From Escherichia phage EC6: a DNA stretch of 64,000 nt. Where the stretch lies: sequence record JX560968. One strand, 5' to 3'. Both the position numbers and the translations under genes were made by a program. The notes under the pieces are model-generated. The model saw nothing but the letters and a program-made list of their open reading frames with translations, was not told where the DNA came from and did no database searches. Positions 24,541 through 64,000 of the stretch are shown in pieces. Each line of letters opens with the position of its first letter. Position 1 is the stretch's first letter.

Positions 24541-24743
24541 TTTCTCTTACCACCAATCTCTACGTCGATAACTTGAACATCACCAGCAACATCAAACTTA
24601 TGAATGATGCTTCCCACAGTGTAAGTCCAACCCTCTATGCGAACCAACTCACCTTCTCGTGGGACGATTGGATTACGTTGAGCTACGGTTGTAGTGGAGT
24701 GAACAACATCATAACAATAGATATAGTTTACTAGGACTTCCAT
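24537..24743 (-). CDS. hypothetical protein
   Basis: 68-aa ORF. Confidence 0.3.
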   Translation of the reverse strand: MEVLVNYIYCYDVVHSTTTVAQRNPIVPREGELVRIEGWTYTVGSIIHKFDVAGDVQVIDVEIGGKRK

Positions 24744-24752
24744 ATCTTCACC

Positions 24753-25007
24753 TTAAAAGAATAAGTCAGATGCTTTTGGGTTGATTAAACTCATGCAGTT
24801 TTGAAGCATGGCTTCATTGTATCCATCTTGGCAAACTGCGTAGAGTTTATCGAAAGTTTCTTTTGATACGGGGGAGACTGATAACTCTTGGCATACACTA
24901 AGATACCATTCGTAATCTAAGCCTCTGCTCCAAGCGTCAGCGATTATGGCTGTAGCTTTGTCTTTGCTTCTGATAACTTCATCAGACTTTCCAATTTTAC
25001 TGTTCAC
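24753..25007 (-). CDS. hypothetical protein
   Basis: 84-aa ORF. Confidence 0.3.
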   Translation of the reverse strand: MNSKIGKSDEVIRSKDKATAIIADAWSRGLDYEWYLSVCQELSVSPVSKETFDKLYAVCQDGYNEAMLQNCMSLINPKASDLFF

Positions 25008-25169
25008 GATGTTCTACCTCTCTGTACGTTCGTCGATAGTTTATAATAAGCTGTGCTAACTCGTTACTTTTAACATCTGAACGTAGCAGTTGCCAATCAA
25101 AACCTTTACCGACTCTCCCATATAAACTAAATAATTTTACTTTGCGTTTCATTTTGATGTTTCCAATAC

Positions 25170-25382
25170 TCAGAGGTCAATACTAATACGTTCACCCTTA
25201 AGAACACCTGTGCGGTCTCTTGCAATCTTTCCGTCAATGATAATGATATGCGCAGACATTAAGGAATCACGATTAAAACCTTTTACGAACTTACTAGGCA
25301 TCACCACAATAAGCATCTCTTGAATCAACTCTGGAGTGTAGCAGTTGTTGTGAAGTTGCTGAATAACGTCTGAAAGTGTCAT
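25170..25382 (-). CDS. hypothetical protein
   Basis: 70-aa ORF. Confidence 0.3.
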   Translation of the reverse strand: MTLSDVIQQLHNNCYTPELIQEMLIVVMPSKFVKGFNRDSLMSAHIIIIDGKIARDRTGVLKGERISIDL

Positions 25383-25443
25383 ATAACCTCCTATATAAGA
25401 TATTGTATAAGGTACTCTTCCATGAGCACCTTGTCAATACTAA

Positions 25444-26000
25444 TTAGTGTACTTCAAGCCAGCTTTTACCAACCTTACCAGTACCTGTAACAAGCGTTTC
25501 TTTCTTAAGACCTAAGTTTTTAGAAGCTTGCCCATAATACCAGTCAGTAACTGCTTTCACTTCTGCCGTCATACTTTCTGGACATTCCCAACTCGTCTCG
25601 TCGTGATAGGAGCACAATAAACGAGCACCTATAGCTGGTTTGCGACCGTTCAACTTCATCAAACCTTCGTCAATCATACGACGGCAAGCAAGGTTAATTG
25701 CTTCATTCTGAACCTGCGCCTCACTACCCATTAGGGTATAGTTTAATAGTTTATGCGGTGATTTACACCATAACCACGCCCCAGCGACCTGAATGTACCC
25801 ACCCTTAGCGATTGCAGCACTCTTGCCGAAAACCTCTTCTAATGCCTTCTTAGTGGCCTTAAAATCGGCTTCTAAGTTATCAAGTAGTTTCTTAATCTTT
25901 GGTAGACGCATATAGTAGGTCTGCTTAGTTAATGCACCTTCCTCTGTAGAAGCTGCCTTAATGGTCTTGGCAAACTTCTCATCACCTGCACCGAACAATA
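25444..26000 (-). CDS. family A DNA polymerase, exon 2 (C-terminal part incl. motif C)
   Basis: Begins ..LFGAGDEKFAKTIKA (second half of Pol A motif B, cf. T7 ...YGAGDEK) and contains LLCSYHDETSWECP (motif C HDE); track ORF starts at TTG. Confidence 0.7.
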
Positions 26001-26805
26001 CATCTGGTCAATACACTCGCAAGGTGTACCAGTTCTCTTATGAACTTCTCCGCATTTCTACGGAGTGTCGGACTATATCACGCAGTAGTAATACTACCGT
26101 TGCACTTGGGAATGGTCATTAGCTTACCACCCTACTCTACTCAGTTCATACATTAAGTATGCTTTTCGATAGTCTCTGAACGTTTCTCTGTTAGGAACTC
26201 TAAAATACTATTATTTACTAAGGTATGCAATTGCTCTCTTCATGTTCTCTATACTATCTGAGAACAGCCCAAGACCTCTGTTACAGTTGTGACACAGCAT
26301 ACCTCTTACCTGTCCTGTTTTGTGGTCATGGTCAACAACCAGCTTGGCTTTATGTCTTGAACCATCCATGATAAAACCTTCACCACCGCAGATTTGACAC
26401 TTGTGACCACACTTACTTAGTAACTCTTCGACCTCTTCTCTTTCTAAGCCGTAAGTCCTTAAGTAATAGTTCTTTACCCTTCCCTTTTCTCCACAAGCAG
26501 AACTGCAATACGTCTGTCTTGCTGTTCTAGGTGTAAACTGGTTATTGCAGCTTGGACATATTTTCTCTATGACACGACTTGCTGCTCTTCTGTCTACTTC
26601 AAGAACGCAGTTTCTACAACGTTTTTGATTGTACTGATATGGCTTAAACTCTTCGCCACATCTGGAACAAACTCTTTCTTTATAACCTGCCATTGTCTCT
26701 CTCCCATTTCTACTATAGGAGTCCTAACAGAGACTTCGCTGCTGATTACCATATCTTTACAGACTTAGGCTTCCAGCAATTCACAACGTTTTACATGCGC
26801 CACTG
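26001..26805 (-). mobile_element. group I intron (about 805 nt) in DNA polymerase gene, carrying an HNH homing endonuclease ORF
   Basis: Exon 1 ends ...AUCUAUGCGU; intron starts CAGUG-GCGCAU (P1: exon AUGCGU pairs with GCGCAU, U-G at splice site); intron ends ...GACCAGAUG; 3' part has GACUAUCG, GUAGGGU, GAUAUAGUCC elements like T4 td-type introns; joined exons restore ...KAKNGIYA-LLFGAGDEK. Confidence 0.6.
26211..26693 (-). CDS. HNH homing endonuclease (endonuclease VII-like) inside the intron
   Basis: Cys-rich zinc-binding N-terminus and HNH core LVVDHDHKTGQVRGMLCHNCNRGLG. Confidence 0.7.
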   Translation of the reverse strand: MAGYKERVCSRCGEEFKPYQYNQKRCRNCVLEVDRRAASRVIEKICPSCNNQFTPRTARQTYCSSACGEKGRVKNYYLRTYGLEREEVEELLSKCGHKCQICGGEGFIMDGSRHKAKLVVDHDHKTGQVRGMLCHNCNRGLGLFSDSIENMKRAIAYLSK

Positions 26806-48037: not shown

Positions 48038-48919
48038 ATGAAAACATCTATCCGTGTTACAGTTCATTCACCAACTAAAGGGACTCATGAAGAAGAGTTT
48101 AACATCGTCCAATTCCCTTCTGGTGAGATTGGTGGACACTTTTCGCCAGAGTTTGTTGATTTTACTGCTTATGCAGCATCATCCATCAACAATGTGATTA
48201 TGATTGTAAAAGGTTATGACAAGGACACATTGTTTGCTGTGGCACTTGCTAAAGAAGCAATTGATGATTTAATTCCTCATGATTATGCTTTAAAGACTGT
48301 CATCTTTTACTACTTACCAAATGCACGATATGACCGTCACATGTTTAAAGGTGACGCAGCAGCTTTAAAGGTTTTTGCTAAACAGATTAATGCAATGGGA
48401 TTTGGCGCAGTCTGTGCAGTTGACCCTCACAGCTATGTACCAGATAACCTGTTTAACTGCTTCCAGAGTATTCCTCAAAAGGAGATTGCAGTTCACTATG
48501 CAAATGACCCACTGGTTGATTACTTAGTAGCCCCAGATGCAGGTGCTGCTAAGAAGGTTGCAGAGACCGCTAAAGAGGTGGATAAACCATATATCACAAT
48601 GTCTAAGGTGCGTAACCTTAAGACTGGTGAAATTACTGGTATGCGAATCCTTGATGATGTTGATTTGACAGATAAAACCGTCATGATTCTGGATGATATC
48701 TGTGATGGTGGTCGAACCTTCATAGAAGCAGCTAAGCATCTCCGTGAAGCAGGTGCAAAACGTGTGGAACTCTATGTAACACATGGTATCTTCTCTAAAG
48801 ATGTTGAAAACCTTCTTGACAATGGCATTGACCACATCTACACTACAAACTCTTTAGGGGAAGCTAAAGACCGTGGCTTAACACATTATAGCCAAGTTAC
48901 TGTAGCAAACCTTGATTAA
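48038..48919 (+). CDS. ribose-phosphate pyrophosphokinase-like protein (Prs-like; candidate ADPR-pyrophosphate synthetase)
   Basis: PRPP-synthetase-type nucleotide-binding loop VMILDDICDGGRT; about 293 aa; directly upstream of NAMPT-like gene. Confidence 0.6.
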   Translation: MKTSIRVTVHSPTKGTHEEEFNIVQFPSGEIGGHFSPEFVDFTAYAASSINNVIMIVKGYDKDTLFAVALAKEAIDDLIPHDYALKTVIFYYLPNARYDRHMFKGDAAALKVFAKQINAMGFGAVCAVDPHSYVPDNLFNCFQSIPQKEIAVHYANDPLVDYLVAPDAGAAKKVAETAKEVDKPYITMSKVRNLKTGEITGMRILDDVDLTDKTVMILDDICDGGRTFIEAAKHLREAGAKRVELYVTHGIFSKDVENLLDNGIDHIYTTNSLGEAKDRGLTHYSQVTVANLD

Positions 48920-48965: not shown

Positions 48966-50747
48966 ATGACTAAATCACTTTATGCAGTACCAGCAGGTCT
49001 TAATGCAGATGCTTACAAGGCATCACATATATATCAGTATCCAGATGTCACACAGTACCTTATGCTGAACCTGACACCACGTAGTGATAAATGGTTTAAC
49101 AGCCCTTTAGCAATTGATGGTGTAGTAGCTTTTGGTATTCAACGTTTTATTAAAGATTACTTGATAGACCACTGGAATGCCACCTTCTTTGGACGTGACA
49201 AAAAAGAAGTAATTGACGAAATCTTAGAAGTCATGAACGGTGTTCTGGGTAAAGATGCTATTGGTCGAGAACATTGGGAAGCACTTCACGACTTAGGTTA
49301 TCTACCAGTTGAAGTATACGCTGTAGAAGAAGGTACAGTTGTCCCTATGCGTGTACCAATGATTGTCTTCCAGAACACTGTTTCAGGTTTCCATTGGGTA
49401 GCAGGGTATCTAGAAGATGCTTTCTCTGCTGAGATTTGGAAGGCTTGTACCATTGCAACTATTGCATTGCACTACAAACGTATCTGTAAGAAGTGGTCTG
49501 ACCTTACTTGTGATAACGACTTACATTTGCCTTATCAGTGCCATGACTTTGCTATGCGTGGTATGTCCGGCTTTACTGATGACGCATTTAACGCTGTAGG
49601 CCACTTAACCAGCTTTAAAGGTACTGACAGTTTCCCTACTGTGTATACGGCTAAACGAATCTATGGACAGTCCTACCCAATCTCTGATATTGGCAGCTCT
49701 GTACCAGCCACTGAACACTCTGTAATGTGTGCAAACATTGCTTGGGAAGGTGGTAATGAGTTGATTGAAGAAGAAAGACGCTTTAAAGGTGAGTTACAAA
49801 CCTTCCGTCGTTTCTTAACAGAAACTTACCCAACTGGTATTGCAAGTGTTGTTTCAGACACTTATAATTTCTGGAGAACTGTATCAGAAATCTTACCAGC
49901 GCTTCGTAAAGAGATTATGGAACGTGATGGCAAACTGGTCATCCGTCCTGACTCTGGTGACCCTGTACATATTGTCACAGGTTATAAAGCAATCCACTTA
50001 GAGTGTGCTAAAAAGGCTTATTATGAACATCTTAGCAAGCTGGAAGCTAGTGATACAATGCTGAATGCTGTTCTGAACATGAAGCTTGAAAACATCAGCT
50101 ATGGTATTGCTGGATGGCTACTGTCAGAAGGCTACGAAATGGTTGTTGACCGAGAAGACTTTGAAGTTGCTGATACAGTGATGTTGAAAAATGCTTATAT
50201 GGTTGGCTCTGCAAACGTTGTAACACGTCCTGTAGCAGAGATTGATGGAGCTATTAAGACCCTGTACAACATCTTCGGAGGGACTATCAACTCTAAAGGT
50301 TTTAAGGTACTGGATGAGCACATTGGACTTATCTATGGTGACTCTATCACGTTGGAACGTGCAAACGAAATCCTGAAGCGTCTGTATGAAATGGGTTTTG
50401 CAAGCTCTAACGTAGTTTTTGGTGTAGGTTCTTACACTTATCAGTATATGACTCGTGACACCTTTGCATTTGCTGTTAAAGCAACTCTTGCAAGCATCGG
50501 TGGTAAAGAGATTATGCTTGCAAAAGACCCTAAAACAGATAGTGGTGTTAAGAAATCTGCCTTTGGTGGTGTAGCACCTATGTGGGATGGTGATAAGCTG
50601 AAAGCTGTAGATGGCTACGGATTCCAGAGTTTTGCAGATGTACTTGACCACCCAGCTTGTGCTTTACGTTTAGTCTTTAGTGACTCTGAGCAGTTTGGTT
50701 ACACAACTCTTGGTGATATTCGAAATAATATTGACAAGCAGCTTTAA
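48966..50747 (+). CDS. nicotinamide phosphoribosyltransferase-family protein (NAMPT/NadV-like; candidate nicotinamide ADPR transferase)
   Basis: NAMPT signatures IRPDSGDPV, GLIYGDS, NVVFGVGSYTYQ; 593 aa. Confidence 0.65.
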   Translation: MTKSLYAVPAGLNADAYKASHIYQYPDVTQYLMLNLTPRSDKWFNSPLAIDGVVAFGIQRFIKDYLIDHWNATFFGRDKKEVIDEILEVMNGVLGKDAIGREHWEALHDLGYLPVEVYAVEEGTVVPMRVPMIVFQNTVSGFHWVAGYLEDAFSAEIWKACTIATIALHYKRICKKWSDLTCDNDLHLPYQCHDFAMRGMSGFTDDAFNAVGHLTSFKGTDSFPTVYTAKRIYGQSYPISDIGSSVPATEHSVMCANIAWEGGNELIEEERRFKGELQTFRRFLTETYPTGIASVVSDTYNFWRTVSEILPALRKEIMERDGKLVIRPDSGDPVHIVTGYKAIHLECAKKAYYEHLSKLEASDTMLNAVLNMKLENISYGIAGWLLSEGYEMVVDREDFEVADTVMLKNAYMVGSANVVTRPVAEIDGAIKTLYNIFGGTINSKGFKVLDEHIGLIYGDSITLERANEILKRLYEMGFASSNVVFGVGSYTYQYMTRDTFAFAVKATLASIGGKEIMLAKDPKTDSGVKKSAFGGVAPMWDGDKLKAVDGYGFQSFADVLDHPACALRLVFSDSEQFGYTTLGDIRNNIDKQL

Positions 50748-54979: not shown

Positions 54980-55528
54980 ATGAAGAAGTTGATTCTAGGT
55001 TTGTGCTTAATGTTTACAGCACACTTATCTTATGCAGTTGACTGCCCAGAGCTATCAATTAGTCAAAAAGTAAACATGTTAAAAGCTTACCAGTATGGTG
55101 AGAATAATATGGGTAAAGGTTGGGGTATCACTCTAGCTGCTATAGCCTTACAAGAGTCAGAGTTAGGTCTGAAGGTAGAGAATAAAAAGACCCATGACTA
55201 TGGTATCTTCCAGAATCACTTGAAGACTGTTGTAAAGCGTAACAAAATCAGTCCTAATGTGGCTAAAAAGAAACTCTTAAAAGATTTTGACTATGCTGCA
55301 AAGGAAACACACAAAGAGCTTGAGTTTTGGACGAAGGTACATGGTCAACCAAAGTCAAAGAAGACTTTACAAAAAGTTTTAGCATCATATAATGCTGGGT
55401 ATTCGTACAAAATTCCTAAAGCTAAGAAATACTCTCAGGATGTCTATAACAATATGAAAGTTATCGCTCAATGTGAATTTGCAACAAACATTTCTAAGGT
55501 AAATCATGAAAAAATTAAGAAAGTCTGA
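54980..55528 (+). CDS. secreted lytic transglycosylase-like protein (SLT domain; candidate endolysin)
   Basis: Signal peptide MKKLILGLCLMFTAHLSYA; SLT-like AIALQESELG...DYGIFQ. Confidence 0.45.
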   Translation: MKKLILGLCLMFTAHLSYAVDCPELSISQKVNMLKAYQYGENNMGKGWGITLAAIALQESELGLKVENKKTHDYGIFQNHLKTVVKRNKISPNVAKKKLLKDFDYAAKETHKELEFWTKVHGQPKSKKTLQKVLASYNAGYSYKIPKAKKYSQDVYNNMKVIAQCEFATNISKVNHEKIKKV

Positions 55529-56201
55529 TGAAGTACTGTGTCATGCTTATGACTTGCATCCTCATGAGTTAGGTCTTGATTCCTGTGTATGGACTCCAGA
55601 ACAGTGCAGAGATTTTGAAGATACTGCAAGAGAAGTTGTATGTTCACTTGAAGAGTTCCACACGCCAGAAACAATTGTGAACGTTGTGGACAAAGAGACT
55701 GGACAATCTATAGGTGTAAGACGTGACAGTTTAGTTATAGTCAATAAAGACCTTGTAGAAAAAGGTAACCTCATCTTAGCAGATATTGATGGTGTTCTTA
55801 CAAATTTTAATCACGAAGACTGCTCAACGGAACTGATTGATGGGTCATTTTCACAGTACACTAATTTGCTTGACTCTGTAAGTGCAAAACCAACGTATGT
55901 TTTCAATATTATTGATGCAATTGCTAACCATGCTGCCATTGGACTCTTGACAGCGAGGGGTGAATCTCAGAGAATACCTACTGAGATGTTTTTAAGGCAT
56001 TACATAGAGCATGATTACATGCTTTTCATGCGTGGTTTTGGAACTAACTCTATAAGTGCAGAAAGTTTAAAAGTTAGGATGATTCAGTCTTGCATTCTTC
56101 CTTACTTTAATATAGTATGCTTTATAGAAGATACAGAGAAGAATGTTCAGAAGGTAAACAGAATCCTTCCACACATTAAAACCATGTTAGTTAAACATTG
56201 A
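55506..56201 (+). CDS. HAD-superfamily hydrolase-like protein (putative)
   Basis: LILADIDGVLTNF resembles HAD motif I DxDG. Confidence 0.3.
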   Translation: MKKLRKSDEVLCHAYDLHPHELGLDSCVWTPEQCRDFEDTAREVVCSLEEFHTPETIVNVVDKETGQSIGVRRDSLVIVNKDLVEKGNLILADIDGVLTNFNHEDCSTELIDGSFSQYTNLLDSVSAKPTYVFNIIDAIANHAAIGLLTARGESQRIPTEMFLRHYIEHDYMLFMRGFGTNSISAESLKVRMIQSCILPYFNIVCFIEDTEKNVQKVNRILPHIKTMLVKH

Positions 56202-56212
56202 GAGAAAAACTT

Positions 56213-56677
56213 ATGAACAATATCATTACGGTAGCACTGGACGATACGACAAACAAATCTGTAGTAGTTCGTAAATTGATTCAAGGTAACTTTGAAGGTA
56301 AAATTTTTCGTGCTGTCAATGTAAAAGCTGATGGCAGCATTCGTGAATATCGTGCATTGTTGAATGTTAAAAAGCACGTAAAAGGTGCTGGTTCAACGAC
56401 TGCACACAAAGAAAACCTGATGACTATTTATGATATGGGTAAGGCTTCAGAGTTAGGTGCTGAAGGTATCGTTAAAGAAGGTGCTCCGTATCGCTCTTTC
56501 AATCTGGAAACTACTCTTATGCTTTCCTTTACAAGTGGTTCTAAAACAATCACTTACCTCTTTACTGATGCTGCAACGGTATCTGCTATTAAGGATGGCA
56601 CTGTCAAAGCTGGCGTAGTTGCTGCTGCAAAAGCTTCTTCGATGGCTGCGAATATCCTTGCTAAAGTCCTCAGTTAA
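56213..56677 (+). CDS. hypothetical protein
   Basis: ATG 56213; 154 aa. Confidence 0.3.
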   Translation: MNNIITVALDDTTNKSVVVRKLIQGNFEGKIFRAVNVKADGSIREYRALLNVKKHVKGAGSTTAHKENLMTIYDMGKASELGAEGIVKEGAPYRSFNLETTLMLSFTSGSKTITYLFTDAATVSAIKDGTVKAGVVAAAKASSMAANILAKVLS

Positions 56678-56688
56678 GGTTAAGATAC

Positions 56689-56710
56689 AGGCTCCTTCGG
56701 GAGCCTTTTT
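56689..56710 (+). terminator. rho-independent terminator with UUCG tetraloop
   Basis: AGGCTCC-TTCG-GGAGCCT then TTTTTC. Confidence 0.6.
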
Positions 56711-56729
56711 CATTTCAGGAGATTGTTAA

Positions 56730-57077
56730 ATGACATTTAAAGAGTTCTGCCAAGATACTTTCATAATTGTTTTCTTAGTTGGAGCAGGTGTCTGGGGAGG
56801 ATACTCTTACAGAGACTACCAAGTTGCTGAAGCTGAGCTAAATAATGAGAAACTAATAAGTGTTGCTAAAGATGCTTATCAGGAAGGTTTAGCCACACTC
56901 AGCACCAATTACAAAAATGATTTGAAAGACGTGCTTGCTAAGAATAAGCACACAAAAGAGGTACTAACATATGAAAAGACTAAGCCAGAGTTTTATAATG
57001 TTTGTGTTACTGATAATTATGTCAGGGTGTTCAACGAACAAAGTGAACAGTACATTCAAAAACTCCCAAGTAAGTGA
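56730..57077 (+). CDS. i-spanin-like protein (Rz-like)
   Basis: N-terminal TM FIIVFLVGAGVWGGY then coiled-coil periplasmic domain; overlapped by a lipoprotein ORF in another frame. Confidence 0.4.
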   Translation: MTFKEFCQDTFIIVFLVGAGVWGGYSYRDYQVAEAELNNEKLISVAKDAYQEGLATLSTNYKNDLKDVLAKNKHTKEVLTYEKTKPEFYNVCVTDNYVRVFNEQSEQYIQKLPSK

Positions 57078-57240
57078 GAGTGACAAGTACACTCAAGAAG
57101 AGTCAAGATTCACTGTCAAAGGTAATACTGGTAGTGATGTGGCAGCAGCCCTTGAGTTTTATCGTGATGGTTTTTACCAGTGCACAATCAAAGCTAATAA
57201 CCTTATTGACATGATTTTATTAGGGAACAAACAGCAATGA
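56971..57240 (+). CDS. o-spanin-like lipoprotein (Rz1-like), overlapping 3' end of i-spanin gene
   Basis: Signal peptide with lipobox-like IMSGC (MKRLSQSFIMFVLLIIMSGCS); AGAGG RBS; starts inside 56730..57077. Confidence 0.4.
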   Translation: MKRLSQSFIMFVLLIIMSGCSTNKVNSTFKNSQVSESDKYTQEESRFTVKGNTGSDVAAALEFYRDGFYQCTIKANNLIDMILLGNKQQ

Positions 57241-57506
57241 CAGAGAATGAAGACACTTTCTATGTAGAAGGGTACTTACTGCTACCACGACCAAAAGAAA
57301 CTTATATGCGGGTTGATTTCTCACCAACCATTATGGATAATGTGATGTGTCATATCTTTATGCAAGGTGTCACAGCACAGCTTAATCATGTTGGTAAAGA
57401 GTGCAAAATAAAGGTTGACACTCATCCAGAAATCAAAGAGAATCACTACACATGGTTCTTACCAGACTCTAAAGAAATCTTAGCAATTCTTAAAACGAGG
57501 AAATGA
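57237..57506 (+). CDS. hypothetical protein
   Basis: 89-aa ORF. Confidence 0.3.
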   Translation: MTENEDTFYVEGYLLLPRPKETYMRVDFSPTIMDNVMCHIFMQGVTAQLNHVGKECKIKVDTHPEIKENHYTWFLPDSKEILAILKTRK

Positions 57507-57817
57507 TTATGCAATTCCAGCCAACAAATCGTGGATTTTCTTATGCAGAATTTAAAGATGCTAAAGGAGAGATTTGTACTTTACAAGAAAGTTCATCATA
57601 TGAACCATGTATCTGGTTAGGTGCTAAAGAGGTCTCTGTTCAGTACCTAGATGGTGGCTGGAAAACACTTGATATCCCAGCATTAGTAGGCAAAGATTTT
57701 GTAGGTAACCAAAGAATGAAACTCAACCAAGAACAGGTGAAAGAGTTGTTACCGTACCTTCAATACTTTGCTGAAAATGGTGAATTACCAACAGAGGAAC
57801 TTACAAATGCAGATTAA
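57503..57817 (+). CDS. hypothetical protein
   Basis: 104-aa ORF. Confidence 0.3.
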   Translation: MIMQFQPTNRGFSYAEFKDAKGEICTLQESSSYEPCIWLGAKEVSVQYLDGGWKTLDIPALVGKDFVGNQRMKLNQEQVKELLPYLQYFAENGELPTEELTNAD

Positions 57818-58130
57818 TGGAAGAGACTTTGTAGCCGTTTACTACGAGAAAGATAAAGAAGTTGGCGTAGCACAAGTATCTTATGGTAATGGTAAGTGGT
57901 TGTATGGGACAATCGCAGTAGTCGGGGCAAGAAGTGATACAAAAACTTTTAAAGATTGTGTTGACCTTCTTGAAGAATCCATCCACAATCATTGGTGTCT
58001 GATATGGATGACTGACAACGAAGTGGTAGAACGCTTCAAAAAGATTGGTATCAACATTGATAGCATTGAGCATGTTGATTTATATGAACTAACCGAAAAG
58101 GTAAGCTATGAAAGCTCTAGAGGTAATTGA
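57807..58130 (+). CDS. hypothetical protein
   Basis: ATG 57807 overlapping upstream stop. Confidence 0.3.
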   Translation: MQINGRDFVAVYYEKDKEVGVAQVSYGNGKWLYGTIAVVGARSDTKTFKDCVDLLEESIHNHWCLIWMTDNEVVERFKKIGINIDSIEHVDLYELTEKVSYESSRGN

Positions 58131-58335
58131 TAAAGACACTGGAGAAGTCACATCAGCATGTGTTTTCGTTAGTAACGACACAGTGATACCATTTTACAAT
58201 CTCGATAGTTTTAGCTTTACAGGGATAACTCCAGAAGAATACTTTGAAGACCTTACCTTTGCCAGAATTTCTATAGATACATTCTATAAATGCTTCTATG
58301 ATGAAGGTAAAGAATTACGAGAAACTGAACTATAA
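58108..58335 (+). CDS. hypothetical protein
   Basis: 75-aa ORF. Confidence 0.3.
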   Translation: MKALEVIDKDTGEVTSACVFVSNDTVIPFYNLDSFSFTGITPEEYFEDLTFARISIDTFYKCFYDEGKELRETEL

Positions 58336-58347
58336 GGTGTATATTAT

Positions 58348-58548
58348 ATGGCTGACTTCTGCAAAGACTGTTCTATCGAAATGTTCGGACGTGATACAGG
58401 TGACTTAAAAGGTCTTATCACTGAAGATGACTTTAAAGCTGGCTATGCAATGCCAGTAATCTGTGAAGGTTGTGGATGTATCTGGGTAGACCACGAAGGA
58501 CAACGTGTAAAACCTTCAGAAGACAAAGAATCTTGGGAGAGATGTTAA
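58348..58548 (+). CDS. small zinc-ribbon protein
   Basis: CKDC...CEGCGC cysteine pairs. Confidence 0.3.
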   Translation: MADFCKDCSIEMFGRDTGDLKGLITEDDFKAGYAMPVICEGCGCIWVDHEGQRVKPSEDKESWERC

Positions 58549-59334
58549 ATGGGTATTGTAAAAATAATCAATGGTGATATCTTTTCCGCCTTTGATAAAG
58601 GTAAGTTTGACATCATTGGTCACGGCTGCAACTGTATGAACTTAATGGGTGCAGGTATCGCTGACAAGATTTCTAAACTTTACCCAAAAGCATATGAGAC
58701 CGATACAGAAGTTTATTTGTATGCAGGTGGCATAGGCCACAAACCCTGTGAAAATTTACTAGGTAATTTCTCTGTAGCACGTTTAGAACAAGGCCGTATA
58801 GCTAACCTTTACACTCAGCTTAAGACTGGTAAAGATGCCCGATATAGTGCTTTAGAGTCATCTTTGAAACAGCTTAACAGATACTGTGAAGTCAATCAGT
58901 TGAAGAAAGTTGGGTTACCTATGATTGGTGCAGGTATCGGTGGGCTAGACCCTCAAGCAGTCACCGTTATCATTAATCAGGTGATGAAGAGTGTAGATGT
59001 GTATCTGTATGTCTACGAAGGAGAGATGTACCACAAGTTACGCTCAGGTTGGAAGAACTACTGTGAACCAGAATACTTTGCAGGTGTAGTAGTATTCACG
59101 GATGATGCAGTTACCCTCTTCAGACGAAGAAAAGGTAAGATACATCAAAGTAACCCTCCGGTTGAAAAGATGTCTCTAAGTAACGCTCTAGTTACCCACC
59201 TGTCGAAGAGCAATCACAGGATTGCAGTAACATTTGGCAGTGATGCAGATACATATATCTATGCAAGAACTGATGAGGATGTTGAGGAAATTTTCTCTTC
59301 ACAGGAAGTTACCTTCTTAGACGCAAAGAACTAA
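58549..59334 (+). CDS. macro-domain-like protein (ADP-ribose binding/processing, putative)
   Basis: N-terminus INGDIF...FDIIGHGCNCMNLMGAGIADKI aligns by eye with macro motif GDIT...DAIVNAANxxLLGGGGVDGAI. Confidence 0.45.
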   Translation: MGIVKIINGDIFSAFDKGKFDIIGHGCNCMNLMGAGIADKISKLYPKAYETDTEVYLYAGGIGHKPCENLLGNFSVARLEQGRIANLYTQLKTGKDARYSALESSLKQLNRYCEVNQLKKVGLPMIGAGIGGLDPQAVTVIINQVMKSVDVYLYVYEGEMYHKLRSGWKNYCEPEYFAGVVVFTDDAVTLFRRRKGKIHQSNPPVEKMSLSNALVTHLSKSNHRIAVTFGSDADTYIYARTDEDVEEIFSSQEVTFLDAKN

Positions 59335-59365
59335 GATACTCTGTAGAATATTCACAATAGACTAA

Positions 59366-59411
59366 GCCTTTCTTATCTGGGAAATCTTTCAGGTAAGGAG
59401 GGCTTTTTCAT
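59366..59411 (+). terminator. imperfect long hairpin with U-tract (terminator-like)
   Basis: AGCCTTTCTTATCTGG...CAGGTAAGGAGGGCT then TTTTTCATTTC. Confidence 0.35.
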
Positions 59412-59592
59412 TTCAGGATTGTGCAGGTAGAGTTCTGTAGAGAAATCTGTAGAGAAAATTTTGAACTCCAAAGAGAAAATTCATTTTCAAACTGTGCAGG
59501 TAATCTCCAAAGAGCTTTTTCATTTTCAAAACGTGCAGATAAAAATCAGGTCGGGCAAGAAAAATCATTTTAGAATTGTGCAGGTAGGTGGG
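59404..59592 (+). repeat. array of four ~26-nt direct repeats (consensus TCATTTTCAAAAnTGTGCAGGTA)
   Basis: Copies at 59404-59430, 59477-59503, 59516-59543, 59560-59590 with 40-70 nt spacing; extra AGAGAAA sub-repeats. Confidence 0.6.
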
Positions 59593-59763
59593 TGTAGGTG
59601 GGGATGTCGCCATTTCTCACAAGGCTACCACATCTGGAAATAAAAGTCAACAGAAAAATTTGTAGCGGATTGAAAAATAATTCTTGATTGTAGTTCTGTT
59701 TTGTGGTAGTCGCGTGCGCCCGTTTCATTACAGTTTTTTGCAAAAATATTTTTAAAATTTTTC

Positions 59764-59859
59764 TTGACTCCTCGAACGGGTTTTTATAGTATTTGCATCA
59801 GACGGGGAGGGAGTGACCTTCCCCACTAAATAACTAACCTTAAACTAGGAGATTCAAAA
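59764..59859 (+). promoter_or_regulatory. promoter + 5' stem-loop + SD cassette (type I variant)
   Basis: TTGACT-N17-TAGTAT, then GGGGAGGGAGTGACCTTCCCC hairpin, then AACTAGGAGATTCAAAAATG. Confidence 0.55.
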
Positions 59860-60240
59860 ATGGCTTATCGTGCACCTAAATTCATCAATAAAGACAACTT
59901 CCGCAACGCACTGGAAAAATCACTTGATGAGAACTTTACAGGTCAGATTATTATTGTTCACGCATATAATTTTAAGTATGATATTAACGGGAATAAAATC
60001 AATCATTACACGGCAACAATGGTAGATGGTACACTATCAAGTGAAAAAGCCGTACTGAATGCACTTGCAGGACGTGGCAAAAACCTGATAAAATGCAATA
60101 AGAGACGTTATCAAGGCGGCGCATATGGTTATGATGATGCTGTTTACCATCTTGAAAATATGGGCTATCAGGTGGAAAAAGCCGGAATATCTCAAATAAT
60201 TGGCAGTGATGGATATGTGACAATTTTCAAAATTAAATAA
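59860..60240 (+). CDS. early hypothetical protein
   Basis: 126 aa; own promoter/stem-loop cassette and AGGAGA RBS. Confidence 0.45.
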   Translation: MAYRAPKFINKDNFRNALEKSLDENFTGQIIIVHAYNFKYDINGNKINHYTATMVDGTLSSEKAVLNALAGRGKNLIKCNKRRYQGGAYGYDDAVYHLENMGYQVEKAGISQIIGSDGYVTIFKIK

Positions 60241-60247
60241 AAAGTAC

Positions 60248-60329
60248 TTTACAAGGGGCTTATAGTTCGATAAAGTAAGCCCCAGATAAAGAGCTTTACC
60301 ACTAAATCCTTAAACTAGGAGATTCAAAA
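60248..60329 (+). promoter_or_regulatory. promoter-hairpin-SD cassette (type II)
   Basis: TTTACA-N17-TAAAGT with GGGGCTTA...TAAGCCCC hairpin spanning spacer and -10; then CCTTAAACTAGGAGATTCAAAAATG. Confidence 0.5.
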
Positions 60330-60842
60330 ATGAAAACTGTAGACGCTACCTTTGAAGTTGTAAAAGAAAAATTTTCCATCATTTACGAAGCGGTTAACTG
60401 CTACGAAGCAAGTCATAGCCTTGATAATTGGGAATTTACAGATAATCATCAAGGTGGTGTTACTGTTAAAAATCCTAACTATCAGCGTAATGAGTTTAAA
60501 TATGCAATCCCTTTACATTACAGCCTGAAACAGCTTTCGAGTGACTATGCAAAACAAGGACGGGCAAATCCATCAAAAGAGGCTTATATCAGCTTACAGG
60601 AAGAACTAGAAAGGGATTTGGAGGCTTCAGAGTATAATATCTCTGCAAAAGTTGTGGATGTAAACGGGAAAACGGTTTTAGACAGCTTTTACATTGGTTA
60701 CGCTTTCGATTGGTGCTACAGTGACGGCGATGATTTAGATGAAAGACTAAAAGAGGAAGTGAACAACGCAGACGCAGAATCTGAAGTATTAGAACGCTTG
60801 GAAGCCTTAAAAGATTCAGTGATGAATATCTTTAAAAATTAA
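60330..60842 (+). CDS. early acidic hypothetical protein
   Basis: 170 aa, acidic C-terminal half (DGDDLDERLKEEVNNADAESE). Confidence 0.45.
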   Translation: MKTVDATFEVVKEKFSIIYEAVNCYEASHSLDNWEFTDNHQGGVTVKNPNYQRNEFKYAIPLHYSLKQLSSDYAKQGRANPSKEAYISLQEELERDLEASEYNISAKVVDVNGKTVLDSFYIGYAFDWCYSDGDDLDERLKEEVNNADAESEVLERLEALKDSVMNIFKN

Positions 60843-60858
60843 ATTAAGAGGGAACACC

Positions 60859-61191
60859 ATGTTAATGATGGGTATCACTGCAATCATCGCCATTATAGCA
60901 CTTTATAAGGCTTACAGCGCCTATAATCTGGCAAGTAAGGCAATCACGCAACAGGTTAACAATAATCTCGTGATGAGCTTTCTCGAGCGTTTAAGCGATG
61001 AGCAATTGAAACGGTTAGAAATGAGCTTCAGATTTCAATCAAAAACTTATCAAATCAGCGACATTTTCAAAGAGGATTTTCAGCTTGTCGATGATTATAA
61101 CGCACTGATAAATGCTTTAAATATCAGTGACTTAAAAGACTACTATGCTGTAATTGTTCAAGAAATGAGCAAACGAAAAAATTCCTCTTGA
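60859..61191 (+). CDS. early membrane-anchored hypothetical protein
   Basis: 110 aa, N-terminal TM MLMMGITAIIAIIALY. Confidence 0.4.
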   Translation: MLMMGITAIIAIIALYKAYSAYNLASKAITQQVNNNLVMSFLERLSDEQLKRLEMSFRFQSKTYQISDIFKEDFQLVDDYNALINALNISDLKDYYAVIVQEMSKRKNSS

Positions 61192-61281
61192 TTTTGGTTT
61201 TTAAAGCAAGTAAATTACTAATCAACGGGGAGGGGATGACCTTCCCCACTAAGTAAAACCCTTAAACTAGGAGATTCTAAA
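61188..61281 (+). promoter_or_regulatory. promoter + 5' stem-loop + SD cassette (type I)
   Basis: TTGATT-N17-TAAATT, ACTAATCAACGGGGAGGGGATGACCTTCCCCACTAAGTAAAACCCTTAAACTAGGAGATTCTAAAATG. Confidence 0.55.
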
Positions 61282-61554
61282 ATGTATACTACTAACAACG
61301 GTCGCACCTTAAACGTAACCCTTCGCCACTATGTGAACGGTGTAATGCACTTCGAAGATTTACAAGCTGAACAACATATTCTGAATTGGCAACTTGCAGG
61401 ATTCCAAAAAACTGCTACCGGATACGGGAAAAAGATTCCAACTAGTTGGAAAGTATACTACGAAGGACGTTTGCGCAGAATTTATCAGGATGTTTACAGC
61501 AATAGCGCAACAAGTTACATCATGGTAAAAGGTAAAAAATTGCACTTAGTGTAA
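61282..61554 (+). CDS. early hypothetical protein
   Basis: 90 aa. Confidence 0.4.
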   Translation: MYTTNNGRTLNVTLRHYVNGVMHFEDLQAEQHILNWQLAGFQKTATGYGKKIPTSWKVYYEGRLRRIYQDVYSNSATSYIMVKGKKLHLV

Positions 61555-61559
61555 AGTAC

Positions 61560-61641
61560 TTTACAAGGGGCTTATAGTTCGATAAAGTAAGCCCCAGATA
61601 AAGAGCTTTACCGCATTAACCTTAAACTAGGAGATTCAAAA
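61560..61641 (+). promoter_or_regulatory. promoter-hairpin-SD cassette (type II)
   Basis: Near-identical copy of 60248..60329. Confidence 0.5.
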
Positions 61642-62046
61642 ATGGCTATCAATAAACGCGAATTATCAATTTTAAAAGCACGTTTGACCGTTAACCGGAT
61701 TAATGTTATTACGTCATCAGCACCAGACGAGACACTGCAAAACATTATTGGGAAGATTCAAAGTGTTATCTTAGACGTTGAAAGCGTAAAAAACTCACTG
61801 ACTGACGTTGCAGCAGGTATCACCTTAAACGGTGCACAATATGAAATGGCTGACATGTTAGGCAAATCTAAGGTAATGAATAAAGAGCTTGATTTGAAAA
61901 TGTTCAGATTCGCCGTAAAAGTATGGTTATCCGTCGATTATGACGCAAATTTTGCAATCGCTGACTTTTTCGCAACATGGTTACAACGTAATTTGACAAA
62001 TCACGATTTTCGTGATATCTGCGATGCAATTTATGCAGAACTTTAA
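61642..62046 (+). CDS. early hypothetical protein
   Basis: 134 aa. Confidence 0.4.
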   Translation: MAINKRELSILKARLTVNRINVITSSAPDETLQNIIGKIQSVILDVESVKNSLTDVAAGITLNGAQYEMADMLGKSKVMNKELDLKMFRFAVKVWLSVDYDANFAIADFFATWLQRNLTNHDFRDICDAIYAEL

Positions 62047-62061
62047 AAAAAAAAACTTTTG

Positions 62062-62156
62062 TTGACACTGGTTTTTAAATAGATTAAATTGTCAATCAAC
62101 GGGGAGGGAATGACCTCCCCCACTAAGTAAAACCCTTAAACTAGGAGATTCAAAAA
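62062..62156 (+). promoter_or_regulatory. promoter + 5' stem-loop + SD cassette (type I)
   Basis: TTGACA-N17-TAAATT; hairpin GGGGAGGGAATGACCTCCCCC (compensatory T-to-C change gives a perfect stem). Confidence 0.55.
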
Positions 62157-62357
62157 ATGGCTATTATTAACGGTTTAAATATTGAGACTACTCACATCAA
62201 AGACATTAAAGTTGGCGATATAGTCCTTTTTCACGGCGTAGAAAAAACCGTCACCGCAAAGGATATCAAAGAGGATTCATTCATGGGCCGGTCTCTCTTC
62301 GGTGATTCGTATTGCTTAGGTTACCGTGCAGTTTTAAAAGTTGTCAAAAATAACTAA
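62157..62357 (+). CDS. early hypothetical protein
   Basis: 66 aa. Confidence 0.35.
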   Translation: MAIINGLNIETTHIKDIKVGDIVLFHGVEKTVTAKDIKEDSFMGRSLFGDSYCLGYRAVLKVVKNN

Positions 62358-62365
62358 TAAAGTAC

Positions 62366-62447
62366 TTTACAAGGGGCTTATAGTTCGATAAAGTAAGCCC
62401 CAGATAAAGAGCTTTACCACTAAATCCTTAAACTAGGAGATTCAAAA
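62366..62447 (+). promoter_or_regulatory. promoter-hairpin-SD cassette (type II)
   Basis: Third near-identical copy (TTTACAAGGGGCTTATAGTTCGATAAAGTAAGCCCC...). Confidence 0.5.
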
Positions 62448-62990
62448 ATGAAATGCTTTCACGGTACTACTCAAGAAAACTTCACCAACCTGATTAATAA
62501 CGGCGATAAGCCATCAGGTGCATGGAATTGTTCGGATATGGACGGCAATTTTTACGTGTATCCAGAAAATAAAATCTATGGCGACGATGCGGAAGAGATA
62601 GCATCCGAAGGTATCCAGCAAGCTCTGGGCAATGCCACTATCACCGCAGCTTTCCAGATGAAAACTCAAAACATTGTTATCTTGGAACTTGATATTCCAG
62701 AAGACGAGTTAAATGATGATTATTCTTGCGATAATATGTCTGGCGTGGCAAGTTTTACGGAATATTTCGATTTAAACTGGATTAAAAAGGTTTACACCAC
62801 TGAATTTAATGCCATGTTTTCACCATTTTGTCTGCCTTCACTGGATAACCCGAATTTAAACTATATTGATGAGTCTCTGGAACTCCTCGCTAAAAGCGTT
62901 CAACAGTCCGACAGTATTCAGGTTTTTTGTGACATCATGGACACACTGACGGAAAACATCATAGAAAGAGATTTGAAGGGCTTTTTCTGA
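62448..62990 (+). CDS. early acidic hypothetical protein
   Basis: 180 aa, Asp/Glu-rich. Confidence 0.4.
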   Translation: MKCFHGTTQENFTNLINNGDKPSGAWNCSDMDGNFYVYPENKIYGDDAEEIASEGIQQALGNATITAAFQMKTQNIVILELDIPEDELNDDYSCDNMSGVASFTEYFDLNWIKKVYTTEFNAMFSPFCLPSLDNPNLNYIDESLELLAKSVQQSDSIQVFCDIMDTLTENIIERDLKGFF

Positions 62991-63022
62991 AAACCTATAC
63001 AATCACCTTATAAACACTATTC

Positions 63023-63043
63023 AGCCCCTTGCAGGGGCTTTTA
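63023..63043 (+). terminator. rho-independent terminator
   Basis: AGCCCCT-TGC-AGGGGCT then TTTT. Confidence 0.45.
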
Positions 63044-63056
63044 AAGGGCTTTAATC

Positions 63057-63290
63057 ATGCTTACAACCGTTTACCTTATCCTTTCCATCTGTAATGGACA
63101 TTCATGTGATTTTAAAGGTCTCGAGGAGTTTACAGGGAGTAAAGAAAATGCTATTCAGGTTTGCCAGATAGCAAGACAAGACTACCCCGCCAGTGATGAT
63201 ATTCAATGTTACTTTAAGACAGAAGACAGCGACGGCGTTTATTTTGACAGCGTTGATGGTCAATATGAAATTATCATTGATAAAGACTAG
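63057..63290 (+). CDS. early hypothetical protein with hydrophobic N-terminus
   Basis: 77 aa; MLTTVYLILSICNG. Confidence 0.35.
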   Translation: MLTTVYLILSICNGHSCDFKGLEEFTGSKENAIQVCQIARQDYPASDDIQCYFKTEDSDGVYFDSVDGQYEIIIDKD

Positions 63291-63380
63291 ACAAGCCGGA
63301 TAAAAGTCTGTAAATTACTAATCAACGGGGAGGGGATGAACTTCCCCACTAAGTAAAACCCTTAAACTAGGAGATTCAAA
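63288..63380 (+). promoter_or_regulatory. promoter + 5' stem-loop + SD cassette (type I)
   Basis: TAGACA-N17-TAAATT overlapping upstream stop; GGGGAGGGGATGAACTTCCCC hairpin. Confidence 0.5.
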
Positions 63381-63722
63381 ATGGCTTATGTAACTGTAAT
63401 TACTGATAAAGCTGATTCATCTTGGCCAACTCAAGTAAGCGATAAGATGACACCTATGCAGTGCCTAAAATACTTTGAGCAATGGAATAAAGGAGAAGGT
63501 GTCAGCCCCTTTCAAGTGATGCAGGTTATCCATGTAAGCGATAAAGGGATTAAAACAGTTTTAAACAGTGAACACTATACAACACGATTTGAAACGAGAT
63601 GTAAAACGATGAAACTGTTACGCGAATCCGGTTATTCTCATATTGCCGCGCTAATCTGGGATGACTTGCTAAAAAATCAGCGTATCAGCTACGTAAAACC
63701 TGAAAAAATATTCATCAGTTAA
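63381..63722 (+). CDS. early hypothetical protein
   Basis: 113 aa. Confidence 0.4.
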   Translation: MAYVTVITDKADSSWPTQVSDKMTPMQCLKYFEQWNKGEGVSPFQVMQVIHVSDKGIKTVLNSEHYTTRFETRCKTMKLLRESGYSHIAALIWDDLLKNQRISYVKPEKIFIS

Positions 63723-63754
63723 TCAATAACTTACAAAAAACTTCTAAAAAAGTG

Positions 63755-63783
63755 TTGACAATACCCCTTGACATTGGTAACTT
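63755..63783 (+). promoter_or_regulatory. sigma70-like promoter TTGACA-N17-TAACTT
   Basis: TTGACA 63755-63760; second overlapping TTGACA at 63768-63773. Confidence 0.35.
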
Positions 63784-63852
63784 TGTTCGAGGGGGTTTAT
63801 CTTAAAGGGATTCACTTAAAAGATTTCTTTAAAGATAAACTTAAAAAATTGC

Positions 63853-63946
63853 TTGCAATCAGATATCAAAACAAGTAAATTACTAATCAACGGGGAGGGA
63901 ATGACCTTCCCCACTAAGTAAAACCCTTAAACTAGGAGATTCTAAA
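63853..63946 (+). promoter_or_regulatory. promoter + 5' stem-loop + SD cassette (type I)
   Basis: TTGCAA-N17-TAAATT; GGGGAGGGAATGACCTTCCCC hairpin; AGGAGATTCTAAAATG. Confidence 0.5.
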
Positions 63947-64000
63947 ATGAACAAATTTCAAGCTATCAACTATATTCGTTCCGTCAATGTCATGTCTAAA
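63947..64000 (+). CDS. early hypothetical protein (3' end outside window)
   Basis: ATG after type I cassette; reads MNKFQAINYIRSVNVMSK to window end. Confidence 0.35.
   Translation, partial: MNKFQAINYIRSVNVMSK

Follow-up and report, generated by a model that had tools for sequence, protein, structure and literature searches.

A probable PeSL-like array of early-gene cassettes at the right end of the genome of Escherichia phage EC6, a Felix O1-like phage

Gene content and genome position

We analysed a stretch of 64,000 nucleotides from Escherichia phage EC6 (sequence record JX560968), called the window below, in which the interval 59.7-64.0 kb takes in most of an array of small genes separated by repeated spacers; the remainder of the array is cut by the window end. 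By Megablast the window belongs to the genus Felixounavirus, i.e. the Felix O1-like myoviruses of 84-91 kb within the Ounavirinae. In the structural region it shares 95-96% identity with many phages of E. coli and Salmonella, and the array region matched 240 records at 88-92% identity. Beyond the window edge, the complete 88-kb genome of Escherichia phage GEP101 (PQ036202; loci L001 and L002) was used as the reference. Two further loci were compared, L010 from Erwinia phage vEam_S_24 (Kolesnikvirus) and L012 from Citrobacter phage Michonne (Mooglevirus). All functional statements made here are computational inferences.

The genes of the locus, with F numbers denoting the families of array open reading frames (ORFs), are as follows:

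58549..59334, + strand: macro-domain protein, last gene of the upstream unit (Pfam Macro PF01661, E 1.2e-7; PHROG 335)
59860..60240, + strand: F01, 126 aa, basic ORFan, PHROG 4495; missing from Felix O1
60330..60842, + strand: F02, 170 aa, acidic with isoelectric point (pI) 4.54, equal to Felix O1 ORF16; missing from REP9
60859..61191, + strand: F03, 110 aa, hydrophobic N-terminus; begins 16 nt past F02, without a cassette of its own
61282..61554, + strand: F04, 90 aa, basic ORFan
61642..62046, + strand: F05, 134 aa, ORFan, equal to Felix O1 ORF20
62157..62357, + strand: F06, 66 aa, ORFan; missing from Felix O1
62448..62990, + strand: F07, 180 aa, pI 4.05, predicted ADP-ribosyltransferase (ART) fold
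63057..63290, + strand: F08, 77 aa, acidic (pI 4.09), hydrophobic N-terminus
63381..63722, + strand: F09, 113 aa, ORFan, equal to Felix O1 ORF21
63948..64000, + strand: start of F11, 176 aa in relatives, equal to Felix O1 ORF22; cut by the window end

Counted in units, the array content of the window is F01, F02 with F03, F04, F05, F06, F07 with F08, F09 and F11. All nine array products fall in PHROGs of unknown function, and searches of Pfam and NCBIfam with the nine proteins returned sub-threshold noise only. A search for donors of F01, F02, F05 and F09 found homologues only in Felixounavirus/Mooglevirus-type phages, with the exception of one weak F01 match in a 146-kb Salmonella phage. The macro-domain gene at the head of the locus, the relatives of which are annotated 'phosphatase' or O-acetyl-ADP-ribose deacetylase, also precedes the array in GEP101, Felix O1 (ORF13), the Erwinia phage and Michonne.

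The position of the array in the genome was taken from relatives, where it ends about 0.5 kb ahead of the direct terminal repeat (DTR). In UAB_69 a DTR of 618 bp is annotated about 480 bp past the last array gene, and the related UAB_Phi87 has a 608-bp DTR that was fixed by Bal31 digestion and run-off sequencing (PMC4837284). These data place the array next to the right physical end of the genome, with transcription running towards that end. The record of the Erwinia phage stops just after its array.

Regulatory cassettes and repeats

The array genes are separated by regular repeated spacers of 87-115 nt, with one cassette per gene or gene pair. The cassettes are of two types, A and B, in near-strict alternation along the array. 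Together with the elements that precede them they are:

59364..59410, + strand: intrinsic terminator ending the upstream unit, a 19-bp stem followed by UUUUUCAUUU (terminator scan; fold -27 kcal/mol, z -6.3)
59399..59590, + strand: four direct repeats of 31-38 nt (..TTTTTCATTTTCAAnnTGTGCAGGTA; consensus ..TTTTTCATTTTCAAnnTGTGCA(G/T)A..; repeat families D5/D7)
59745..59859, + strand: type A cassette 1, -35 TTGACT at 59764, -10 TAGTAT at 59787, hairpin 59804-59824, box 59838-59855
60241..60329, + strand: type B cassette, -35 TTTACA at 60248, -10 TAAAGT at 60271, box 60308-60325 (fold -24.3 kcal/mol, z -3.95; covariation)
61192..61281, + strand: type A cassette, hairpin 61225-61249, box 61260-61277
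61555..61641, + strand: type B cassette, TTTACA at 61560, box 61620-61637 (fold -26.5 kcal/mol, z -4.2)
62047..62156, + strand: type A cassette, -35 TTGACA at 62062, -10 TAAATT, hairpin 62099-62123, box 62134-62151
62358..62447, + strand: type B cassette, TTTACA at 62366, box 62426-62443
63023..63043, + strand: terminator-like hairpin GCCCCUUGCAGGGGCUUUU between F07 and F08 (fold of 62990-63059, z -1.8, weak)
63291..63380, + strand: type A cassette, hairpin 63325-63349, box 63360-63377
63836..63947, + strand: type A cassette, hairpin 63890-63914, box 63925-63942

The most constant element is an 18-nt box, CCTTAAACTAGGAGATTC, which is exact in all eight cassettes. Its eight copies carry no mismatch, lie all on the + strand within 59838-63942, and compare with 0.04 copies expected. 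The box holds the Shine-Dalgarno sequence, with AGGAG about 10-11 nt ahead of the start codon, and the ATG follows the box by 4-5 nt (AAAA, TAAA or AAAAA) in 7/8 copies and by 3 nt (AAA) at 63381.

Type A (5 copies, 79% mean column identity) consists of an AT-rich tract, a TTGACA-like -35 box, 17 nt, a TAAATT-like -10 box, about 10 nt and the hairpin ACGGGGAGGGnnTGAnCTnCCCCAC, which thus lies downstream of the -10 box and folds as RNA at -17 to -19 kcal/mol. Type B (3 copies, 96% identical) has TTTACA-N17-TAAAGT within a long imperfect hairpin that spans the -35 to -10 region, folding at -24 to -26 kcal/mol with z about -4. Within the window, the five type A hairpins and the three type B motifs are confined to the array. 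In both types the boxes match 9-10 of the 12 sigma70-like consensus positions and are A/T-rich upstream, and from these sequence features we infer that the cassettes hold sigma70-like promoters. A scan of 59200-64000 against Rfam gave chance-level matches only.

In a pool of 20 different type B cassettes, taken from Felixounavirus and an Erwinia phage, 19 pairs of the hairpin were conserved and 4 of them showed compensatory double changes; the pair 18-43 is GC in 15 cassettes and UA in 5, and is broken in none. Such changes argue for selection acting on the hairpin as such.

The four direct repeats of 59399-59590 lie past the terminator and ahead of the first cassette. Four homologous repeats of about 37 nt are found at the matching position in Erwinia phage vEam_S_24 (L010 20828-20975), i.e. 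number and position are kept between Felixounavirus and Kolesnikvirus. They are possible iterons or operator sites.

The cassette sequences have been seen before. The Felix O1 genome paper lists them as direct repeats of '57 bp' and '39 bp' that separate genes 15/16, 19/20, 18/19 and 20/21, assigns them no function, and calls temporal regulation not understood (PMC3185647). Our literature search, of incomplete coverage, found no paper reading the Felix O1 repeats as regulatory cassettes. Such a reading would explain repeats that were listed without interpretation in that paper of 2010.

The same paper allows the timing of some array genes to be judged. By reverse transcription PCR, transcripts of Felix O1 ORFs 16, 20, 21 and 22 (F02, F05, F09 and F11) were assigned to 5 min, those of ORFs 17, 19 and 23 to 25 min, in a table that also lists the capsid gene as early (PMC3185647). 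This supports an early to middle class for the array genes, and is indirect support for activity of the predicted promoters.

Composition of the array

The genes between 59860 and 63722 had been described in an initial annotation, made by eye, as compositionally distinct. GC content does not bear this out and was rejected as the distinguishing variable: sliding GC is 0.372-0.383 at 58-64 kb vs 0.368-0.426 elsewhere in the window, and the per-ORF median is 0.377 in the array vs 0.384 in the rest (Mann-Whitney p=0.3), i.e. the GC check proposed with the annotation gave no significant difference. The description holds for CpG and for the dinucleotide signature. The per-ORF median of the observed/expected ratio (o/e) of CpG is 0.99 in the array (n=9) vs 0.43 in the rest (n=89; Mann-Whitney p=2.2e-6), with the highest array value, 1.59, in F05. 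The interval 59860-63722 holds 132 CpGs, compared with 68.4 +/- 15.9 (max 102) in spans of equal length elsewhere. In 1-kb windows CpG o/e climbs from a background of about 0.25-0.6 to 0.88-1.17 at 59.5-63 kb. A two-rate likelihood scan places the left change-point at 59710, just upstream of cassette 1, and to the right the CpG-normal island extends as far as the window end. In GEP101, where 9 boxes were found in the complete genome, all on the + strand and all inside 66803-71368, the CpG-normal interval coincides exactly with the box-bearing one. Island and cassette array are therefore treated as one object.

The island differs from the rest of the window in other dinucleotides too. Strand-symmetrised values, island/rest, are 0.91/0.47 for CG, 1.02/1.24 for TG/CA, 0.97/1.18 for AG/CT and 1.21/1.04 for AA/TT. 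The signature distance (delta*) of the island to its own genome is 0.173 vs 0.041 +/- 0.014 (max 0.082) for ordinary 4.3-kb windows, thus twice the maximum among these. The distances of the island to 50-kb samples of T4 (0.064) and E. coli K-12 (0.096) are smaller than that to the genome in which it lies.

The claim that these genes use more of the CpG-containing codons GCG, CGC, ACG, TCG and GGC stands in part. Taken together the five codons make up 3.3% in the island vs 1.6% in the rest (p=0.0096). CGC (0.21/0.05), ACG (0.14/0.06) and GGC (0.31/0.12) are raised, GCG (0.04/0.03) and TCG (0.04/0.02, n=3) are barely changed, and GGC contains no CpG. Most of the coding CpGs (85/124) lie at codon junctions, NNC|GNN, where CpG o/e is 1.13 in the island vs 0.43 in the rest, and the effect is therefore mainly one of the dinucleotide level. 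At codon positions 2-3 the values are 0.56 vs 0.28, and at positions 1-2 they are 1.16 vs 0.93. The regulatory spacers inside the island are CpG-poor (0.53), the ORFs are not.

An explanation by codon adaptation would hold that immediate-early genes, translated before the phage transfer RNAs (tRNAs) accumulate, use host-preferred C-ending and CGN codons, with CpG as a by-product. The phage carries about 20 tRNAs, some array genes are expressed early, and C-ending codons are indeed raised (besides GGC and CGC, AGC at 0.27/0.11 and ACC at 0.21/0.11). We nevertheless regard this as unlikely. GC at third codon positions is only slightly up, and GCG and CCG (0.06/0.07), which E. coli favours, are not raised. 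The o/e at junctions, where most of the CpGs lie, already corrects for the frequencies of C-ending and G-starting codons, and the junction matrix as a whole is different (C|T, for instance, is at 1.07 vs 1.68). Furthermore, the depletion in the bulk of the genome is strand-symmetric, as described below.

Two other places with raised CpG were noted. A secondary bump with o/e 0.7-0.9 lies at 24500-26500, in the minus-strand replication block, and the small ORF 24997-25152 reaches 1.74; the GEP101 counterpart of this area has a homing endonuclease splitting the DNA polymerase gene, and the bump may accordingly mark a mobile insert. In GEP101 itself a 1-kb patch at 52-53 kb (L002 8000-9000), covering two 'modification methylase' genes, has CpG o/e 0.96 and GC 0.46 and looks like a genuine foreign insert.

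Unit variation and age of the array

Boxes, hairpins and ORF families were mapped in seven phages, namely the window, GEP101, SP2, REP9, ESCO50, UAB_69 and Felix O1. These differ by whole units, with F10, F16, F21, F02, F01 and F06-F08 being present or absent. F10 occurs in four of the seven and is missing here, F16 occurs in three and F21 in UAB_69 alone; F02 is missing from REP9, and F01 together with F06-F08 from Felix O1. F07 and F08 are present or absent together in the relatives examined and have a terminator-like hairpin and no cassette between them; F08 could act together with F07 or provide immunity against it.

One junction, that of a 484-bp GEP101 unit, was checked at base level. 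Window and GEP101 align with 97% identity up to the type A hairpin, 484 bp are then skipped, and the match resumes inside the next box. The end of the indel thus falls within a cassette at the junction analysed, and a crossover between two boxes would be expected to give just this product. The suggestion of the initial annotation that early genes are shuffled here is in substance borne out, on grounds other than those first put forward, by the repeated cassettes, the whole-unit differences, the one junction in a repeat and the Felix O1 transcription data.

The array also diverges faster than its surroundings. Among Felixounaviruses nucleotide identity is 85-93% in the array (59860-63722) vs 91-97% upstream of it (55506-59334), and 4-fold degenerate sites compared with Michonne differ by 53% in array orthologues (Jukes-Cantor distance, JC, 0.93) vs 41% in flank genes (JC 0.58).

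At the same time the locus is occupied in relatives. The array lies at the syntenic site in Felixounavirus (240 records), Mooglevirus and Kolesnikvirus. In Erwinia phage vEam_S_24 the macro-domain gene (protein 43% identical) and the four repeats are followed, in the same order, by 16 small genes in an array whose type B cassettes are recognisably homologous and whose cargo, in this Kolesnikvirus, is different. CpG o/e is there 1.06 in the array vs 0.71 upstream, and other dinucleotides shift in like directions. In Michonne the CpG of the array is above that of the flanks by a smaller gap, with a junction o/e of 0.69 vs 0.41, compared with 1.14 vs 0.35 in EC6. The Michonne array has not kept the 18-nt box.

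The array shares the oligonucleotide constraints of its genome as well. GATC is absent from the window (0 against about 225 expected; 0/14.4 in the island and 0/209 in the rest), from GEP101 (0/311), from the 28.7-kb Erwinia locus (0/107) and from 18 kb of Mooglevirus sequence. CCWGG, the Dcm site, occurs 4 times against 56 expected in the window, divided into 0/3.2 in the island and 4/52 in the rest. The absence of GATC is without mention in the Felix O1 genome paper (PMC3185647), and our literature search, again of incomplete coverage, found nothing on GATC absence or on a CpG island in these phages.

These data bear on an explanation along the lines of the initial annotation, namely a recently imported block of early genes, the foreign origin of which accounts for the composition and the acidic products of which are DNA mimics or anti-restriction proteins. 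The closeness of the island signature to T4 and E. coli, the ORFan content and the two or three acidic products would all fit. Synteny in three genera, with cassettes and CpG offset at the same locus, and the shared avoidance of GATC and CCWGG show that the array is not a recent import, and the donor search described above found no homologues outside the phage group. A recently acquired genomic island was accordingly rejected, atypical composition notwithstanding, since the locus is occupied in relatives and the resident constraints are kept; recent import is largely refuted, and we consider the explanation as a whole very improbable. The array as a whole is old.

Comparison with known systems

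The closest described architecture is that of the promoter-early stem-loop (PeSL) cassettes, which occupy hyperplastic regions in the genomes of T4-type phages (Arbiol et al. 2010, PMC2839356; Comeau et al. 2014, PMC4122927); both papers treat T4-type phages only. As described there, PeSLs are about 100 bp long and have a strong sigma70-like promoter, an AT-rich upstream tract, and a Shine-Dalgarno sequence with ATG at the 3' end; a polyG/polyC stem-loop lies between, over or after the promoter boxes, and the cassettes are preferentially located upstream of ORFans. They mediate indels and form mini-circles, a mechanism shown experimentally in T4-type phages (PMC2839356; PMC4122927).

The array agrees with this description in its intergenic repeats of about 100 bp, with AT tract, sigma70-like boxes, G/C stem-loop and then Shine-Dalgarno sequence and ATG, and in the position of the stem-loop, which is between or over the promoter boxes in type B and after the -10 box in type A. 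As with PeSLs, small ORFans follow the cassettes, the cassettes are grouped in a variable region, and indels between relatives end at them. It differs in having only two cassette types, in near-strict alternation and with an invariant 18-nt translation-initiation box, and in forming a single terminal array where PeSLs occupy many dispersed regions. The CpG of the array cargo is decoupled from that of the genome, a feature without mention in the available parts of the PeSL papers. The lineage is also different, Ounavirinae of about 88 kb and not T4-type phages, and the likeness rests on the architecture as described. We therefore limit the claim to the array probably working like PeSLs.

A second comparison is with host-takeover clusters. 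The terminal-redundancy module of SPO1, the pre-early genes of T5 and the class I genes of T7 are small genes of mostly unknown function that lie near a genome end and are expressed early, and most of them have their own strong host-type promoter and a strong ribosome-binding site. The array resembles these clusters in adjoining the physical end and in its small genes with their own predicted promoters. Unlike them, it lies beside the 0.6-kb DTR and not within it, and it is transcribed towards the end.

We interpret the region as a hyperplastic array of early-gene cassettes, PeSL-like, at the right end of a Felix O1-like genome, and give this interpretation a probability of roughly 0.68. In the proposed mechanism the strong terminator ends the preceding unit before the array, and host sigma70 RNA polymerase would start at each cassette early in infection. 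The type A hairpin would then sit at the 5' end of the transcript, and the hairpins would attenuate read-through and/or stabilise or process the mRNA. The repeats would act as portable homology, with recombination between copies inserting, deleting or swapping whole gene units. The cargo plausibly consists of host-takeover or counter-defence factors.

If this is correct, an architecture of the PeSL type, described for T4-type phages in the two papers cited, extends to the unrelated and therapeutically used Felix O1-like phages. For phage engineering the cassettes would offer a natural landing pad for gene insertion together with ready early expression signals.

Cause of the CpG contrast

As far as we have found, the kind of cassette is known from T4-type phages and the ART fold discussed below is known too, and the CpG compartmentation is undescribed in the literature searched. 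A CpG boundary that is sharp and conserved across genera, in a genome copied by a single replisome, is a compositional compartmentation left unexplained so far, and the about 240 sequenced relatives can serve to test it.

In the bulk of the genome the depletion of CpG is general. Most NCGN contexts have values of 0.15-0.32, with 0.6-0.7 for ACGN and NCGT (including the preferred Arg codon CGT). Motif and reverse complement are depleted alike on the coding strand (CCGA 0.29 and TCGG 0.30; GCGA 0.26 and TCGC 0.30). Symmetry and generality point to a pressure at the DNA level, away from an effect on mRNA or translation. An RNA-level cause, such as a CpG-sensitive RNase, and a translation-level cause are disfavoured by the symmetry. 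Avoidance of restriction palindromes was rejected as the cause of CpG loss, as CCGA, GCGA and CCGC are depleted like CCGG, GCGC and TCGA. Singleton substitutions in seven Felixounaviruses gave a ratio of CpG to non-CpG transitions of 1.65x for the flank, from 9 events, and of 1.03x for the array, from 19 events. The comparison is underpowered, and argues only against a large methylation-like hypermutability of CpG.

Within the cassette-array interpretation we weakly favour an explanation by turnover, in which the array stays CpG-normal because its cargo turns over faster and exchanges alleles with a wider pool of phage genes that is itself CpG-normal. The idea is based on the unit indels, the faster synonymous divergence, the ORFan content and the different cargo in Kolesnikvirus. 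Two observations weigh against it: the donor search with F01, F02, F05 and F09 found no cargo donors, and at least one cargo gene is old.

A region-specific equilibrium is a tentative alternative that we hold possible. Here the bulk of the genome is under a DNA-level pressure against CpG, either a mutational bias or selection, for instance to avoid host nuclease targets that contain CpG; in the terminal array this pressure is relaxed or offset, and CpG is maintained near 1. The general and strand-symmetric depletion of the bulk agrees with this, as do the persistence of the offset in three genera despite near-saturated 4-fold sites (JC 0.93), the other genome-wide constraints kept by the array (GATC, CCWGG), and the CpG-poor spacers (0.53) next to ORFs that are not CpG-poor. 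However, there is no known mechanism by which about 5 kb of a single-replisome genome would be spared. The amplitude varies by genus (junction CpG 1.14 here, 0.69 in Michonne), which a decay would fit equally well, and the underpowered singleton spectrum shows no clear difference between array and flank in CpG loss or gain.

It is further conceivable, though in our view doubtful, that the CpG map records selection at the DNA level, with Ounavirinae genomes purged of CpG, as of GATC and CCWGG, because a host nuclease or sensor acts on DNA containing it, and with the terminal array exempt through the timing or mode of its exposure. It might, for example, be spared by its place in the order of entry, be protected by early products of its own, or be continually replaced by recombination. 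If true, the abrupt limits of the island would reflect a functional border in the entry or protection of the genome and not the trace of an old import.

Acidic proteins and the ADP-ribosyltransferase fold

Two array products had been singled out as markedly acidic, and both are. F07 has pI 4.05 and a net charge of -22, and is among the two lowest in pI of the 99 ORFs; F02 has pI 4.54 and a net charge of -15, with 13/99 ORFs at least as acidic, so that only F07 is exceptional. A third acidic product, F08 (63057-63290, pI 4.09), had been missed. Homologues of F02 and F07 were found only on Ounavirinae contigs of about 84-91 kb, all of them annotated hypothetical.

A role as DNA mimics or anti-restriction proteins, which had been suggested for such products, was compared with T7 Ocr and ArdA. 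Like these, F02 and F07 are small, acidic early phage proteins of pI around 4. In charge density they are unlike Ocr: charge per residue is -0.122 in F07 and -0.088 in F02 against -0.239 in Ocr, i.e. half or less, and the fraction of D+E is 0.172 and 0.194 against 0.291. With the nine proteins, none of the Ocr, ArdA, KlcA and Acr families was matched at E<=1 in Pfam and NCBIfam, libraries that are not dedicated to anti-defence. F02 and F07 had no hidden Markov model match and no significant match to a PDB sequence, and for F02 neither a profile search of PDB nor the family libraries gave a match. In addition, Bas63 is sensitive to restriction-modification systems (PMC8594841).

For F07 a mimic role is largely refuted by the predicted ART fold, which is not an elongated, DNA-like one. 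The AlphaFold2 (AF2) model of F02, from an alignment of 24 sequences, has a predicted local distance difference test score (pLDDT) of 56 and a predicted template-modelling score of 0.39 and is too poor for a fold search. This leaves room for a mimic role of F02, which is unsupported because the protein could not be modelled.

The predicted structure of F07 shows the split beta-sheet of the ART fold, and on this model F07 is a protein with a PARP/Tpt1-like ART fold (H-Y-[D/E]) and a putative enzymatic activity. The residues invariant in the family are H5 (of an HGT motif), W26, S29, Y36, D91 and S93. H5 lies within predicted strand 2-8, and among 43 relatives of 25-64% identity G6 and T7 are kept by at least 90%; in a PDB profile search the HGT aligns with the LFHGT of Tpt1 (7kw8) at E 0.19, which is not significant alone. 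Y36 lies in strand 35-39 (FYVYP). For the catalytic Glu/Asp/Gln, which in ARTs stands at the start of strand beta-5, two candidates were seen: E80 is invariant in Ounavirinae but no more than a majority residue across the family, and D91 is invariant in the family but lies in a loop with pLDDT below 50. F07 has no significant match to a curated ART family and no hit in Pfam and NCBIfam, and 5/43 relatives match PARP, all below threshold (best E 0.012). The nearest known proteins are the minimal H-Y-[E/D] ARTs, that is Tpt1/KptA, Arr, DarT, AcrIF11 and the PARP catalytic domain. The family is widespread in phages, with 324 clusters at 50% identity, and the predicted fold is a first functional lead for this unannotated family.

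The macro-domain protein at the head of the locus, a potential ADP-ribose eraser, could erase the product of F07. By synteny with the annotation of GEP101, the window further carries genes for phosphoribosyl pyrophosphate synthetase (48038-48919) and nicotinamide phosphoribosyltransferase (48966-50747), the latter two serving nicotinamide adenine dinucleotide (NAD) salvage. Macro-domain gene, F07 and NAD-salvage genes together suggest an NAD/ADP-ribose theme in the phage. In the Felix O1 genome paper the phage is reported without host-modifying enzymes of the T4 Alt/Mod type (PMC3185647).

Additional observations

Past the array of the Erwinia phage, dense short direct repeats (CTTCTAAG.., CTGTTAAG/CTGTTACA..) fill the final ~0.9 kb of the record (L010 27800-28650). 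They may be part of a terminal repeat, or packaging signals. A Felix O1-type array at 89% identity is also carried by GU169904, a record of 147 kb labelled Staphylococcus phage SA1, which is probably a chimeric or contaminated assembly.

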